From contig OY969622.1 of the NCBI GenBank assembly GCA_963701665.1, forward strand, positions 992,001 to 1,056,000: a DNA stretch of 64,000 nucleotides, given 5' to 3'. A program made the position numbers. Of this stretch, positions 48,001 through 60,000 are shown piece by piece. This DNA comes from Candidatus Babeliales bacterium. GTDB taxonomy: Bacteria > Babelota > Babeliae > Babelales > JANWKD01. The first letter of the stretch is position 1; the number at the start of each line of letters is the position of its first letter.

Positions 48001-51000
48001 ATTTCATGATTATATCGGCTTTTCAAGTTAAGTGGACCTAATTCAATACTATTTTTTAAAGATAATTCATCCAATATATTCAAAATATTCTAATGAAGAA
48101 TACACATATCTTTTTGATATACCCATTATGATTACAAAAGAGTAAACAATGAAAGCACCTAAAATAATTCAACCGACAGTTAGCATAGATTGTGACTGTT
48201 GGTGCACTTCGAAACTGGCCGTTGAAAACAATAAATTTTATTTCGGTACCTTCGGTGGTACACTCAATTTTGGAGATATTAAGACTAAAAATATTATTGA
48301 AACTCCTACTAAAGAACAAATCGAATCAGTCGCAGTATATAAAGATTATGTTTTCGCCGCTGGCGACACTTTTATAGGTATGTTTGACAAAGTAACAGGT
48401 AAACTATTATATGAATTTCCCCAAGGACATTTGGGATGTATTCATGGCTTGATTACGTACAAAAATACTTTAATATCTGGATCCGATGAAATTAAAATTT
48501 GGGATTTAGAAACTAAAAAATGCTTGGCAACCTTAGAATGCTCTAGAGAATTAGTACAATCTCTTATTATAAAAGATAACTTTCTGATTTCTGGTCATGA
48601 TAAAGGAGTCATTAGAATATGGAATCTTATTTCAAAAGAATTAGTTCAAATATTGCATGAACATAGTTGGAGTGTTAAATCTCTCGCCATAAATGGTAAT
48701 ACCATCATTTCAGCCACTGGCGATCAAACAATCAAAATATGGGACTTTCATTCTGGAAAATGCCTTAATACTTTAGTTGGCCATAATACACCGATTACAT
48801 CAATTGCTCTACATAAAAATTATCTCTTTTCAAGCTCAGAAGATGCATTACTAAAAATATGGGATTTAAAACAAGGACTGTGTTTAAATAGTTTGAAATT
48901 AGATGACCAAGTTCTTCAACTCGTTGCTGATCAATATTTTTTATATACTATTTCGGACTACTCCTTTTTCCATCAATGGAGGTTAGATGATTTGATTACT
49001 CATGAACCTCTCGAAGCATTAATTCCTAAGGATTATTATGTAGAAAAATCTAGATTAACACATATTTCCTATGTATATAAAGGTGATTAATTATGGAAAC
49101 CCAACATTATGTTACTGAAACAATTAAACCTCATACTTATCATTGGACCATAACAATCACCGCACTTATATTCTTGATAAGCTTGTTATATTTTATTTTT
49201 CAATTTTTTCCAACCTATTATCATTTACGCTTAGTTTTTAAAACAGCCGAATATAATTTTACTCTTGGCAATTATACAGAAGCAATAAAAGGATATACCC
49301 TCATTTTAAAAAATTTTAACAGCTTTAAAATGGCAAAAATAAAAAAGGTACAAGGATACTTTCCATTAGGCAAAAAACAAAAAGCGCTAAAATTACTATC
49401 TAATATGGAACTAACTCATAATGATTTAGAGTTATTAAAAAAATATATACCATTTGATTGTCAACATCATTTTCAACCAAAAACGAACATCATAGGATAT
49501 AAAGTCATATGCTAGCACTATTAACATTTCCAGGAATAATCATTCATGAAATTGGGCATAGATTTTTCTGTGATATTCTGAATATAAAAGTTTATGAAGT
49601 CATGTATTTTAATCTTGCACGGGATATTAGTGGTCATGTTATACATGAAATAACCCAAAATGTTCATAAACAATTTCTTATTGCTATGGGTCCTCTTCTT
49701 ATTAATACTTTTTTTTGCATGTTATTCACTTTCCCCTATAGCTTGCCTAACTATTGGTTTGGAGAACAATTAGAATACTCACAATTTATAAATGCATTAT
49801 TTTTAATCATGTATTGGGTAGGATTTAGTGCTGGTGTCCATGCTTTTCCAAGCAATATAGACTTAAACAGCTTAGAAAAAACATCTAAAGAATATTATTC
49901 TGACTCTGTATTAACAAATTCTATCTTAGGAAGCTTACTTAATTTTTTTCGTATAATTGAACCAATAAAATTTTTATTGCAATTGATGTATGCTTTCTCA
50001 ATTAGTCAATTTTTACCATCATTAATATTGCCATAAAAACAAAGCAAAAATATCGTCTCATATTTACTTTTACTAAAAAAAAGATACGATCTTAGCGATT
50101 CACAAACCATAACACAAAAGGATTACCATGAAAGTCTTATTCAGCTTAAAACACACATTTCTTGTTTTAACATTTGTCTTTTTAGTACCTGCAAGCTGTT
50201 CTGCTAGGGTTCAATCACCTATTACTGTTTCTGAAAGCATCGGGTGGACTATAGCAGGCGCAGCATTGATAGCATCAGGACTTTGCATCGTTAACGAAAT
50301 ACCATTAACTTCTCTTGATGAAATTTCTTTGTCATTTCGCAATCAATTAAGTAAAGAAAATCTGAGAAAATTACACCTCGGACGTGCAATACAGGGATAT
50401 ACATTAGCTGGCGTTGGATCAATTATAAGCTTTCTTGGTGTATGTGCATTGATCACCGCCAAAAAATAGATAGTGCTATGTTCTACACAGAACAACTATT
50501 GATGCAGATTTCAACGCGAGTAGTGCCTCATCCAGCAGCTATGTTGACTATAAAAAATTAAAGGTCATGAAGAACAATATAACATTTTATACGGTTCTAA
50601 TCATGACCCTTAATGTACAACAATTAAAATTACTTTAATTCACACTCTTTTACTTCAGCTTCACTAAACCTTTTAATGATGTAGGCAATTTCCTGCACAA
50701 CTTCTTCAGGCAATAAACCATAATCTTCTGCAATTTTCTCAACACGGTAACTGAGGTCCCAAAATGGGATATCCGCCCATTGCCTCTTCCATTGTCCCAT
50801 ACAAACATTTGCTTTCATCGCATCTAATTGATCACAACGATGTTTTACCCTGGTTGATGCATCACTATGTTTGTTGTTAAAGCACACATATTCAATGAAT
50901 GAATTTTCTTTTGTATGCAATCGATCTATTTCTTTTGTGACCGCTTTTTTAAAAACACTTTCAGAGGAATTTTTTTGTAAGATAAGTATTCTCTTTTTCA

Positions 51001-57000: not shown

Positions 57001-60000
57001 AAAGCGCCCTGCAATTATCATTATTCTTCCTGCATTCTTGAAGCATACCTTGAGCAGTTTTTCCATCTTTATTAGCATCAATATCTATATCTATGCCTGC
57101 TTTAAATAAGAGACGTGCTTTTTTTATAACGTCTCCACGAGACTGCACCGTGCACCAATAAGATAACTCATGAAGCGCTGTTTCATTATAATGATTCAGA
57201 GAGTTTATAAAGACCTTTTGTTCGATATAATACTCTAAAAGATCAGGTAATCTTCCTTGCATTATTGCTCGATGCAATAATGTGTTACCACTTTTTGCAC
57301 CTTTCCAATTAACTTTTGCACCATGCGCAACTAATAACTCAGCTATCTCTTTGTTTTTAGCATAGGATAACGCAGGCTCACCTAGGATAATGTTTTTATT
57401 TGGTTTAGCTTTGTGCTCAAGTAAAATTTTTACAAGCCAAAAATCATCATTTTGAAGGGGATCTAACAGTGGCCTCCAGGGTCTTTTGAAACTAATGTTA
57501 GGATTAGCTCCTGCACACACCCAACCGCCTATTTTGCATCGCTGTGTAGAATATTCTGCACAACTATCATCTAACTCATTATTTTTTTGTTCTTGAGTCA
57601 AAGAAACAGCCCTTTGAAAGTACTTTTTTCTTTTAAAATAATCACACGTTAATGGTTGACCCTGTGCAGGACATTCTGTAAACCATGTTGCATGATCATT
57701 CTCATCGAAAGTAGGTTCATCATAGTCTTCTTGTGTAACTTCAGGGCTTTGCTCAAGCGTCTCAAACTTTTCTTGAGCTTCATGCCCAGCATCTTTTTCT
57801 TCTTTTACTTGCTGCACACCTTCAGTTTTTGCAAAAGCTTCATCAGCTTTTCTTAGCCATTCATCTTCATCATGCATGGCATTCAGTGATACGCTCAGCA
57901 TCATTGATACAAAAAATATATATCCCAATTTCATAAGAATATCTTTCTTTTTTAAATGTGAGATACGTAGTTTTGTGCCTTATTATGTTGTTCAATTTTT
58001 TCATGCACAATGCGATCAAGCGTATGCTCACTCATAACTTTATTTTCAGTTGCAAATGCAGCATGCTGCGCATGAATTGCTAATTTTGATATATCACGTC
58101 CTGAAAAACCTGCTGTCTTGTGTGCCATTTCTTGCAATTTTTCTTCTGAAAGATTTTCAATCTTTGCCTCTCTATCCATAACATATTTATTAAAATAGAG
58201 ATTAAGTAACTCTTTACGCCCTAGTGCATCAGGTAATCCAATAAATTCTTTTTGATCAATACGACTTATCGCTGCTGCATCTAATGCTTCTGGTCTATTC
58301 GTAGCCAAAACAAGCATGAACTTTTTGGTCTCGGTTCCGGTGTGCGTTAAGAAAGCGGTTAATAATTTTCTGGTTGATTCACTTACTTTATTTCTTGATT
58401 CTAAAAGAGCATCAGCTTCATCGATAAACAGCAAAAGTCCTTTTGGAGAATTGTCTGCCCATTTAAATAGCTTATTGAGCTCTTTAATTTTCTGATCTTC
58501 AGAAAACTGATCAAAATTTGCGCCTGAAGTAATTGCATAATCTAACCCTGATGAGCGCGCTAATTCTCGTGCCAATAATGTTTTACCAGTACCTGGAGGA
58601 CCATATACTAAAAGGTGACGATGAAATCCATCATTTTTTTGAACATGCTTTAAACCCTGTGCAAGTTCAAGAAGACGATTTTTTGTTGCCTCAGGCAAAA
58701 TAAGCTCGCTAAACGGTGCAACAGCAACAGGTTGTGGCTTGCCATAATTTATTGCAGTTTTGAATGGCGCAAGAAAACGCTGTTGTAATGTTAGGCGCGA
58801 TGTTTCAGTCACAAGAGTCGGCTTTCGCAAAAGCATTGCAACGTGATCACCAACAACTTGCGATCCTTTACGGGAAGCAAAATAGGCAAGGCTGCATCCA
58901 GCAAGGCCGAGGGTGGCGTAGGTAACTTTTTCAGGATCACTTATGAAGGTGTTAAATCCTTGTCCCCATAATTGCAATTTTTCCATCGAGTGTTTATGAA
59001 GCATAGCGGTTTTTGTAAGATCATGCTTTAAGCGTTCTGGCAATGTTTGTTGATCTAATTCTGCTTGGATTTTAGCTTCTTCGACGCGTGTTTTACGCTG
59101 TTCTCTTTCACGTTCTCTCATGCGTTGTGTTTTATAAGATTCTCCCTCTTGCATGAGTTTCCGCGCTAATGCATCCTGGCGTAGAAGAAAATCGTTTAAT
59201 TCATTACCAAAATTAAGATCAACATTTCTCCGTGTACCTGCTTTTGCTTTTATAGTATCTTTTATATATTTTTTATTTCTTTTTTGTGCTAATTGATGTT
59301 CTTCTCTCAGCAATTGCTTTCGTAATTTATGCTCTTCGGCTTGGCGCTCTTTTGCCAATTCATGTTCTTTTTGTGCTTTTGCCATTTCACTTGCCATGCC
59401 CCAACGCCCACGTACATCTTCATGATCTTTCACAAGCTTTAATTGTTCTGCTTTAGCAGCCTCAATGTCCCGTTGGAGTTTTAATTTTTCAACAGTTTGA
59501 TAAAGATCAATCTTTGAATTTGAAGGTGATTCCATATAAACAGCCGCTCGGCTCAGTGCTGTACTCAACCTTTTATCAGAATGCTGCATAGCACCGAGTG
59601 GCAATGAAAGTAAAAGTAATGGTATAAGATAGAAAGTATTCTTCATAAAAAAGTCCCTTTATAATTAATTATTGTGTTCTTTGTGTTTGTTAATCTTTTT
59701 TGCTTCATGCAGACGCTCTTTAAAACGCTCTTTTCTCGTGTAACAGGATGGATGAGAATCAAAGAGTGAAGTTGTTGCTTTTTGCACTTCTTCACGAATC
59801 TCTTTTTTTTCTTTTTTGTTTGCTAAAAAAATGGATGGCGCCATTGCCTCTTCATATCTTTTTTGATCTCTTTTGAAATGATGAATGGCAGCTTGTAAAA
59901 TTTTAGGGTTATCGACAACAACGTTATCATCGGCACGTTGCTCAATATATCTTTGACATCCCATTAACAGCATCAGATTTCCGTACCCTTTTGCAACACC

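Follow-up and report, generated by a model that had tools for sequence, protein, structure and literature searches.

The window analysed here is a stretch of 64,000 nucleotides from contig OY969622.1 of a Candidatus Babeliales bacterium, a small organism of parasitic type. Its reverse strand, on which all features described below lie, carries a run of genes around an ATAD3-like AAA+ ATPase of 564 aa, P0001 (57952..59646). The initial annotation had placed this ATPase at the head of an operon; the same-strand run begins one gene earlier, with a 336-aa HExxH protein (59665..60675) whose gene is separated from that of P0001 by 18 nt. Seven ORFs follow P0001 on the same strand, each separated from the next or overlapping it by a few bases, as had been described, and the ATPase and its neighbours in the cluster are real genes.

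The reported layout of P0001, a hydrophobic N-terminus, an ATAD3_N match at residues 62-279 and an AAA domain at 345-470, was borne out by ORF reading, Pfam and hydropathy. Residues 1-20 (59587..59646) form a signal-peptide-like N-terminus ending in LGA ahead of MQ (MKNTFYLIPLLLLSLPLGA followed by MQ), with an 11-residue Kyte-Doolittle maximum of 2.46; genome-wide, [AS]-M-[DEQN] follows the hydrophobic core in 77 of 429 such ORFs, against 4/429 at control positions. Signal-peptide and topology calls made here are hydropathy heuristics rather than the output of a dedicated predictor. Residues 46-236 (58939..59511) constitute a proposed periplasmic arm, rendered by an AlphaFold2 model as two long charged helices (46-138 and 146-236, pLDDT 62-85), followed by a third helix at 238-272 and a confident AAA domain (pLDDT ~90). 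The charged fraction from the N-terminus to the membrane segment is 0.39, and beyond composition no sequence homology was detected between the arm and the eukaryotic N-terminal ATAD3 motif or ATAD3_N. Where ATAD3 has its membrane segment, P0001 has a moderately hydrophobic stretch (residues 240-258, KVTYATLGLAGCSLAYFAS; 58873..58929), which stops 90 residues ahead of Walker A and whose 19-residue hydropathy, 0.94, falls under the lowest value among 25 eukaryotic ATAD3 proteins (1.11-1.67). It is succeeded by a juxtamembrane motif, KPTLVTETSR (residues 275-284; 58795..58824), common to eukaryotic ATAD3 (consensus GKPxLVRETSR); P276 and S283 are invariant in alignment A1, and a search with the pattern KPxLVTETSR retrieved four related metagenome loci. 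The AAA core (residues 345-470; 58237..58614; PF00004, E 1.3e-25) is followed by lid helices up to the C-terminus. K355 of Walker A, D409/E410 of Walker B, N450 of sensor-1 and R462 are invariant in 20 bacterial and eukaryotic members, the pore loop is aromatic (DQF), and the top Foldseek matches are p97 D1, FtsHi and FtsH.

That P0001 is a true ATAD3 homologue, as first proposed, is upheld by an ATAD3_N score over the Pfam cut-off (PF12037, E 2.1e-6, 27.7 bits against 25), by the invariant motifs and by its place in a clade with eukaryotic ATAD3 proteins, to which it is 30-41% identical. The supposed rarity of the family, ATAD3_N having been counted in 1 of 260 genomes, was an effect of that cut-off. 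PF12037 is found in 23 of 261 phylum genomes at E<=0.01 and above the Pfam cut-off in 6, and with a family profile 119 of the 261 genomes match at E<=1e-40; no fewer than 95 of these, with full-length homologues, count as safe. NCA2, also invoked by the initial annotation, does occur in Babelales, in 73 of 261 genomes (54 over cut-off) and not in 30. Many phylum genomes hold 2-6 ATAD3-like copies, some in tandem, and among the profile matches listed 149 of 150 start at model position 32 or earlier, so that the membrane segment and juxtamembrane motif are covered. The hydrophobic segment lies 75-94 residues ahead of Walker A in all 55 bacterial members examined and 77-97 residues ahead in all 25 eukaryotic ATAD3 proteins; in the bacterial members net charge is +1.6 after the segment against +0.67 before it, and 40 of the 55 possess an N-terminal hydrophobic core with KD>2.0. 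The P0001 subclade contains the best ATAD3_N scorers (G111, 42 bits; P0001, 27.7 bits) and the weakest membrane segments in the family (hydropathy 0.86-1.16 in 8 of 12 members). Our literature search found no paper on bacterial ATAD3 homologues; judged by sequence, P0001 is part of a large bacterial branch of the ATAD3 family that is so far undescribed.

Its nearest relatives are bacterial-type proteins with signal peptides, at 40-47% identity. The earlier statement that every named hit was eukaryotic holds for a word-indexed search, but in an exhaustive HMMER search unnamed bacterial-type proteins outrank the eukaryotes (P0167, 41%, E 1e-86; P0171, P0173 and P0175, 40% each). Bacterial and eukaryotic ATAD3 proteins form a clade against the other AAA proteins of the genome (99/99); all 25 eukaryotic proteins sampled group in a single clade (98/87) with P0001 outside it, inside a 12-member bacterial-type clade (96/89). 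The P0001 subclade was nearest the eukaryotic clade in two quick trees (SH-aLRT 90 and 95), and both AU tests, which bear on the rooting of the ATAD3 tree, were non-significant (p 0.155 for the P0001 subclade joined with alveolates). The earlier case for recent capture of the gene from a protist, which rested on rarity, is not supported, in view of the breadth of the family, the bacterial-type nearest relatives and the position of P0001 outside the eukaryotic clade.

Six of the seven downstream ORFs are ankyrin paralogues by Pfam; the last, which had been counted as a seventh, has no Pfam ankyrin match. The first (337 aa; 56921..57934; Ank_2 E 6e-13) combines a signal peptide, an acidic region, Cys motifs and ankyrin repeats. 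The second ORF (55870..56991) opens from TTG, with a likely ATG start near 56952, and the third to sixth (54816..55940, 53756..54886, 52690..53919 and 51639..52760) each have an ankyrin match in Pfam. The seventh member (50630..51709) has the signal peptide and ~73 N-terminal residues in common with the paralogues and then diverges, identity being 67% in residues 1-73 only and 24% overall; a Pfam search with it found no family. With dN/dS of 0.27-0.48 among them, the six paralogues are therefore maintained genes, and the conserved Cys pairs of their family, Cx8C and Cx6C, are compatible with an oxidising compartment outside the cytoplasm. Repeats behind a signal peptide and tandem, lineage-specific expansion are features of Dependentiae ankyrin proteins at large, which PMC6561590 puts at 98 copies in C. 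destructans and presents as the usual effector candidates in the phylum. The P0001-partner family differs from these in its conserved acidic Cys-motif N-terminal domain (ECP...C, RC...CAGxDPN) and in being bound to one ATAD3-like subclade; only 11 matching proteins were found among 5.8 billion.

The first gene of the run encodes a candidate M48/M56-like membrane metalloprotease with a signal-peptide-like start and the motif HEANH. H175, E176, H179, E245, H308, P309 and R321 are invariant in seven homologues. Pfam Peptidase_M48 matches the protein weakly (E 0.042), and its top Foldseek matches, ZMPSTE24 (E 0.037, prob 0.96, TM about 0.3) and BlaR1, are accompanied by none at E<=1e-3.

The arrangement of ATPase and ankyrin genes recurs. 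An exported Cys-rich ankyrin family lies 3' of the ATPase gene in all four informative loci of the P0001 subclade, namely its own and, directly downstream, G111 (hhalign prob 92%, E 6e-7), L184 (35% over 227 aa to the first paralogue, E 2e-34) and L185 (45% to the G111 protein, E 5e-41); the proposed link between the two is thus not accidental. The M48-like gene is present in two of the four, with differing gene orders: that of P0001 and metagenome locus L184, where a homologue (29% over 302 aa, E 3e-17) adjoins the ATAD3-like gene. Neither the G111 nor the L185 locus contains it within the extent sequenced. Beside other ATAD3-like subclades the partner ankyrin family was found at 0 of 48 loci (flanks of ~1.5 kb), and an unrelated exported ORF of 405-611 aa is kept upstream there (11 loci aligned). 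In G110, a genome of the same genus, other genes occupy the P0001 segment between conserved flanks, pheT-lspA-pgpA-PRTase on one side and a 1054-aa ORF on the other (53% identity to its counterpart, E 2e-144).

In the reading we favour, at roughly an even chance, P0001 is an ATPase of ATAD3 type set in the inner membrane, its helical arm reaching into the periplasm and its motor lying in the cytoplasm, and it works together with co-encoded exported partners. Homology, the order of domains, intact motifs, the breadth of the family and the conservation of the neighbouring genes are shown by the data; the topology, contact with the partners and the direction of action are inferred. The signal peptide would direct residues up to about 240 into the Sec pathway, and the two helices, of ~90 residues each, would form an arm in the periplasm; the segment at 240-258 would serve as a stop-transfer, and the juxtamembrane motif and AAA motor would remain in the cytoplasm, where ATP is. 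Hydrolysis of ATP by the motor may then be coupled to periplasmic or outer-membrane events that involve the exported partners. In the P0001 subclade these would be the Cys-rich ankyrin proteins, joined at some loci by the M48-like membrane protease; in the other subclades a different exported membrane protein would take their place. The ATPase would probably hold, assemble, process or release its partners. The signal peptide says little here and discriminates between no readings, because ~45% of the genome's ORFs bear signal-peptide-like hydrophobic N-termini (44% are reported for C. destructans in PMC6561590). In favour of an inner-membrane anchor is the conserved hydrophobic segment, 75-94 residues ahead of Walker A, with an ATP-dependent domain after it. 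The topology proposed is the one reported for mitochondrial ATAD3, with its ATPase in the matrix and its coiled coils in the intermembrane space (PMC10419812 and 10.1101/2025.10.06.680775).

Eukaryotic ATAD3 (animal ATAD3A/B, C. elegans ATAD-3, PfATAD3; PF12037 + PF00004) stands among the nearest known counterparts of P0001. Common to both are the order of helical N-terminal region, membrane segment, GKPxLVRETSR-type motif and classical AAA domain, and the spacing from membrane segment to Walker A. Unlike P0001, eukaryotic ATAD3 has no Sec-type signal peptide (N-terminal hydropathy <=2.06, n=25, mostly <1.2); it has D[VI]xP[LM]G in the pore loop in place of DQF, and 59 residues between Walker A and Walker B (25/25) rather than 60. 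The P0001 gene, for its part, sits in a bacterial cluster that also encodes exported partners. TolA/TonB-type energy transducers span the periplasm and are driven by the proton-motive force. By analogy of mechanism only, P0001 resembles them in an inner-membrane anchor and a long helical arm that could carry energy toward the outer membrane; its energy source would instead be an AAA+ ATPase, and no sequence relation is claimed.

The initial annotation's idea of a secreted ATAD3 mimic can be kept in a narrowed form, confined to one subclade. It is unlikely, in our judgement, that proteins of the P0001 subclade are wholly Sec-exported, leave by a secretin-type or vesicle route with the ankyrins and the M48-like protease, and insert into host mitochondria for ATAD3-like (perhaps, for the protease, OMA1-like) membrane remodelling around the parasite. 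Such a course would suit the signal-peptide-like N-terminus, the subclade's leading ATAD3_N scores and proximity to the eukaryotic clade in both trees, and partners consisting of ankyrin proteins that bear signal peptides and have expanded in tandem within the lineage. The membrane segment of P0001 is weak, and that of its subclade the weakest in the family, so Sec might fail to stop there; the genome encodes two secretins, and PMC4776705 reports components of a T2SS in the phylum, so that an exit from the cell is at hand. PMC6561590 documents mitochondrial wrapping in a cultured phylum member. The same architecture, however, is found in no fewer than 95 of the 261 genomes, in up to six copies and also with non-ankyrin partners, which a housekeeping envelope role fits better. 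The partners' Cys pairs suit an oxidising compartment over the host cytosol, the pore loop is of the bacterial aromatic type, and we know of no Sec-exported AAA+ ATPase.

FtsH and HtpX, a bacterial membrane AAA protease and an M48 protease, act in membrane-protein quality control, and P0001 recalls them as a membrane-anchored classical AAA motor whose gene adjoins that of an M48-like zinc protease. A split FtsH-like processing or quality-control unit, in which a membrane AAA unfoldase and the separate protease would mature or degrade the ankyrins or other envelope proteins and the arm would serve oligomerisation only, seems to us more doubtful still. Adjacency of the two genes in differing orders, FtsH and FtsHi among the top structural matches, the aromatic pore-loop residue and the invariant HExxH...E ligands speak for it. 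P0001, however, has no M41 protease domain, has a long periplasmic helical arm where FtsH has a small periplasmic domain, and scores far under the cut-offs of NCBIfam FtsH models (75 bits vs 600). The M48 assignment is itself weak; the protease family occurs in just 12 of 261 genomes, three of them without the ATPase, lies apart from the ATPase in G022, G034 and G105, and is missing from two informative loci as far as sequenced, while the dN/dS values show that the ankyrin genes are kept and are silent on turnover. A chance juxtaposition of functionally unlinked exported-protein genes in a variable island, to which the replacement of the segment in G110 and a promoter/terminator scan at chance level would lend themselves, is very improbable given the same partner family 3' of the ATPase in 4/4 loci, despite ATPase identities of only 40-47%, and its absence beside the 48 loci of other subclades.

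P0001 lies in a large bacterial branch and its gene in a conserved cluster with those of exported ankyrin proteins, so that it does not stand as an isolated recent acquisition from a host.

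Judged from its sequence, P0001 (564 aa, window 57952-59646(-)) carries an AAA domain of the classical clade with Walker A, Walker B, sensor 1 and arginine finger intact. Pfam AAA (PF00004) matches residues 345-470 at E 1.3e-25, and K355 of Walker A, D409/E410 of Walker B, N450 of sensor 1 and R462, the arginine finger, show no variation among the aligned bacterial and eukaryotic relatives. The match of ATAD3_N (PF12037) to residues 62-279 is marginal, at 27.7 bits against a cut-off of 25, and most bacterial members of the family match this profile only by its last ~70 positions. 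The juxtamembrane motif reads KPTLVTETSR, the ATAD3 form being GKPxLVRETSR. An AlphaFold2 model (mean pLDDT 77) shows residues 1-45 as disordered, followed by long helices at 46-138, 146-236 and 238-272 and a confident AAA domain. The closest solved structures to this model are p97 D1, FtsHi and FtsH, and no ATAD3 chain appeared among the PDB matches of either the sequence or the structure search. None of 15 NCBIfam bacterial AAA families, FtsH, CDC48, PAN, IteA and EccA among them, reached its cut-off on P0001, the best being CDC48 with 83 bits against 803. A profile of the eukaryotic N-terminal ATAD3 motif (FDxxALERGA...) found nothing above genome-ORF background in 55 bacterial members, the best of which scored 6.5 bits while random genome ORFs reached 9.7; a likeness to this motif seen by eye in the alignment was dropped, since the profile gives it no support.

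The initial annotation had treated ATAD3 as a rarity among bacteria, and within the phylum this view has to be abandoned. PF12037 by itself picks up 450-670-aa ORFs at E<=0.01 in 23 of the phylum's 261 genomes (six of the 261 above cut-off). The ORFs read from these loci all have one order of parts: hydrophobic N-terminus, charged stretch, hydrophobic segment, GKPxLVRE[ST]SR and AAA domain. A profile of the part from the membrane segment to the C-terminus, A2, was built from 12 members and finds 119 of the 261 genomes at E<=1e-40. This threshold is too lax, as the five weakest genomes match from model positions 65-112, without the membrane part, and we therefore counted, conservatively, a genome only if one of its listed matches reached E<=4e-69; of the 150 matches listed, 149 begin at or before model position 32. 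Full-length members are thereby present in at least 95 of the 261 genomes and in 13 of 21 coded families (taxonomy here follows coded ranks, the phylum name Dependentiae being that of the initial annotation). Two families are nearly saturated (34/35 and 11/12 genomes). Copies number up to six in a genome, some of them standing in tandem. Arrays of three paralogues were seen at G133:C7:25909-30328 and G142:C3:39085-44812, the first of these genomes having six copies in total. Within the window's own family the only carriers are the source genome, G000, and G111; the gene was found neither in G110, of the same genus, nor in two genomes of the same family. Of at least 80 loci that a scan with A2 beyond the phylum picked up through generic Walker motifs, four were read (L079, L081, L094, L137), and these proved to be other AAA families: FtsH, Cdc48-like and double-AAA proteins.

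A word-indexed homologue search returned, among the matches listed, a 91% twin, a 47% protein and then only ATAD3_N-bearing proteins at 30-41%; those with names are all eukaryotic, one cluster carrying a Perkinsus name. The earlier statement that every named hit is eukaryotic is thus sound for that list, but in an exhaustive HMMER search unnamed proteins of 39-42% identity score above the eukaryotes. Nine of these were read: in all of them an LVTETSR-type motif is accompanied by an aromatic pore loop, and a hydrophobic N-terminus is present in eight. Among the best 150 representatives, 48 combine the juxtamembrane motif with an aromatic loop (36 of them with a hydrophobic N-terminus), another 64 pair the motif with a non-aromatic loop, those inspected being of the eukaryotic D[VI]xP[LM]G type, and 38 lack the motif, 22 of these being multi-AAA proteins. 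Five proteins of 1500-2100 aa (P0165, P0166, P0168-P0170) are among the best HMMER matches to P0001 yet lack the juxtamembrane motif; they contain four or five Walker A motifs and were matched over five or six stretches.

The main tree was computed under LG+C20+F+G4 from 352 columns and 91 rows (61 bacterial-type, 25 eukaryotic and five AAA modules of the same genome). Bacterial and eukaryotic ATAD3-type proteins form a clade (99/99) against the five modules, a small outgroup from one genome. The 25 eukaryotic ATAD3 proteins constitute a single clade that excludes P0001 (98/87, and 99 in a reduced quick tree), while P0001 and the G111 protein lie together in a bacterial-type clade of 12 rows (96/89), here called the window subclade. 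One branch of this subclade (P0171, P0173, P0175, P0176 and P0180, from metagenomes) has a CxxC motif, e.g. CPHCQNNG, in the exported N-terminal region, which is missing from P0001. The base of the family is not resolved in the main tree. None of 200 bootstrap trees contains a branch that separates the bacterial rows from all others, but the AU test does not reject bacterial monophyly (delta lnL 3.0, p 0.416). In the reduced quick tree, from which nine long-branch rows were removed (D_L024, L045, L067, L070, L072, L073, L076, L078 and O_L049), a branch of 95*, a kind of support less reliable in quick trees, unites the eukaryotes with 17 bacterial rows, the window subclade included. The spacing between Walker A and Walker B, considered as an indel character, was uninformative because the outgroup shows both lengths.

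All trees made show one eukaryotic clade among bacterial lineages, beside the window subclade. A recent capture from a protist host, with P0001 nested in crown eukaryotes, is not supported, its position being outside the eukaryotic clade in every tree, although the AU test of a grouping of the window subclade with alveolates, the group of the best named matches, is not significant and so does not reject it (delta lnL 22.3, p 0.155). On these trees the ATAD3-type family is an old one, common to bacteria and eukaryotes, with transfer conceivable in either direction. We tentatively entertain, at a probability well below even, a single origin of eukaryotic ATAD3 and the bacterial family through an ancient transfer between a parasite lineage and an early eukaryote, possibly from bacterium to eukaryote.

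In passages of reviews (PMC10419812) and of a Plasmodium preprint (10.1101/2025.10.06.680775), ATAD3 is described as an inner-membrane-anchored protein whose ATPase lies in the matrix and whose coiled coils lie in the intermembrane space. By analogy, P0001 may sit in the bacterial inner membrane with its N-terminus out and its C-terminus in; a bacterial protein of such topology would need a signal peptide, which the signal-peptide-like start would match. All 55 bacterial members have a hydrophobic segment whose end lies 75-94 residues ahead of Walker A, its 19-residue hydropathy exceeding 1.0 in 45 and 1.4 in 27 of them; 40 of the 55 have an N-terminal core above 2.0, and in this set the net charge after the segment is higher than before it. 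In 25 eukaryotes the segment lies 77-97 residues before Walker A with a hydropathy of 1.11-1.67, and there is no comparable N-terminal core. The segment of P0001 ends 90 residues before Walker A, and its hydropathy of 0.94 is lower than that of all 25 eukaryotes; with values of 0.86-1.16 in eight of the 12 window-subclade members, full export is conceivable.

The initial annotation had assigned P0001 a Sec signal peptide. The hydrophobic start is indeed present, but it carries little weight for secretion, since 429 of 959 G000 ORFs of at least 150 aa (45%) begin in a similar manner; a passage in PMC6561590 gives 44% for C. destructans. G000 has two secretins, and no VirB4 was found in it; passages of PMC4776705 report two copies of gspD, along with parts of a T2SS, for the phylum. 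Throughout G000, hydrophobic N-terminal cores are often trailed by [AS]-M-[DEQN], mostly A-M-E, including at 59587-59646 and at all seven paralogue starts. Of the 429 ORFs with such a core, 77 have the motif at positions 15-40, as opposed to 4 at positions 60-85; of 530 ORFs lacking the core, 21 have it. Other genomes of the phylum show the motif too, and it may serve for cleavage or sorting in a way typical of the phylum.

P0001 is the second of nine minus-strand ORFs in a single run from 60675 to 50630, separated or overlapping by a few bases. The run opens with a 336-aa protein (59665-60675(-)) with a hydrophobic start and a HEANH motif, termed M48-like here, and seven ORFs lie 3' of the P0001 gene. 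These had been described as seven ankyrin paralogues, a description which fits six of them (337-364 aa, minus strand), where repeats (PF12796, PF00023, PF13637) exceed Pfam cut-offs. The seventh (50630-51709(-)) has no ankyrin match and is 67% identical to the others over its first ~73 residues only, and 24% overall. A scan for promoters and terminators gave counts at the level of shuffled sequence. G110 keeps both flanks, with pheT-lspA-pgpA-PRTase on one side and a 1054-aa ORF (53% identical, E 2e-144) on the other, and different genes occupy the stretch between them. The variable segment also holds a 313-aa WD40 beta-propeller protein (48149-49090(+)). Two more AAA-domain ORFs occur in the window, at 43143-44531(+) and 21112-21483(+); the former, of 462 aa, has a hydrophobic start ending in YCMED and a C-terminal hydrophobic helix, and adjoins the 1054-aa ORF, a pair that G110 retains. 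G110 additionally encodes an 894-aa fusion of signal peptide, ankyrin and AAA (L159:5863-8547).

The ankyrin partner family is narrow, with 11 matches among 5.8 billion proteins. In the genomes of the window's family all seven matches fall inside the window array, and none was obtained at 1e-5 in G110, G108, G109 or G111. In G111, a 236-aa signal-peptide protein nevertheless begins 24 nt after the ATPase gene, and the region of its Cys motif and first repeat fits the profile of the paralogues (hhalign probability 92%, E 6.4e-7). A metagenome scan with the pattern KPxLVTETSR yielded four loci (L184-L187), two of which, L186 and L187, stop at the ATPase gene. In L184, the ATPase is 47% identical to P0001, the next gene encodes a 375-aa homologue of the M48-like protein (29% over 302 aa, E 3e-17), and beyond it lie six tandem signal-peptide paralogues, the longest of which shares 35% identity with window paralogue 1 across 227 aa (E 2e-34). 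In L185, a 280-aa protein starts 18 nt after the ATPase gene and is 45% identical to the G111 partner (E 5e-41), its direct match to the window family profile being weak (probability 27%). From these comparisons, the partner family is kept in all four informative loci of the window subclade (window, G111, L184, L185) and the M48-like gene in two. The partner-family profile found nothing at 48 loci of other subclades (flanks of ~1.5 kb). The paralogues are 52-83% identical within a genome as against 27-35% between genomes, have Cx8C and Cx6C pairs in common, and are under purifying selection (dN/dS 0.27-0.48).

In other subclades the ATAD3-like gene is often directly preceded by a different, conserved exported ORF, 405-611 aa long (L160:2343-4175, L166:128-1801, L168:2476-3858, L169-L177). 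Its start resembles a signal peptide and its C-terminal part contains a hydrophobic helix; it has no Pfam or NCBIfam match and shows no relation to the 336-aa M48-like protein, and its identification as NCA2 was ruled out (hhalign probability 0.3%). In two genomes, G167 (L166:2185-4548) and G138 (L162), a GspD-type secretin gene lies immediately upstream of this ORF. NCA2 itself (PF08637) occurs in 73 of 261 phylum genomes, in 54 above cut-off, and its distribution by family does not follow that of the ATAD3-like family; the G000 copy (C1:633705-634616, L013) has a hydrophobic N-terminus.

We favour, with roughly even confidence, the reading of P0001 as an inner-membrane, envelope-spanning ATPase of the ATAD3 type that works with exported partners. 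The secreted effector of the initial annotation, mimicking ATAD3 to remodel host mitochondria, strikes us as rather unlikely; it retains some probability because the membrane segment is weak, the partners resemble effectors and the window subclade stands close to eukaryotic ATAD3. HEANH and E245 are invariant in the M48-like protein, Peptidase_M48 (PF01435) matches it below cut-off (Pfam E 0.042), a profile search of PDB sequences with its family gave 0 matches, and Foldseek points weakly to ZMPSTE24 and BlaR1 (E 0.04-0.1); its putative M48/M56 assignment draws on the invariant HExxH...E residues and weak fold matches. Its family occurs in 12 of 261 genomes, some without the ATPase. To a split FtsH/HtpX-like processing unit we give slightly less credence than to the secreted mimic. 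Three tandem M48-like paralogues are found elsewhere in G000 (C1:174846-177441).

ATAD3 is an essential protein in animals and Plasmodium alike, yet how it acts is unclear. Searches of open-access papers and bioRxiv for ATAD3 with the phylum names, horizontal transfer or prokaryotes turned up no account of homologues in bacteria. A bacterial branch of this size, with the ATAD3 layout, simple operons and identifiable partner genes, would offer a tractable system for the function of helical arm and motor, and would raise the question of ATAD3's origin. Were the transfer indeed from bacterium to eukaryote, an essential organiser of mitochondrial membranes would descend from the envelope-spanning ATPase of an intracellular parasite, with the bacterial proteins and their exported partners as its ancestral working form. 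The parasite phylum, for its part, would gain a conserved module made up of the ATPase, ankyrin proteins that are Cys-rich and exported and, at some loci, an M48-like protease; whether it serves the envelope or is directed at mitochondria can be tested.
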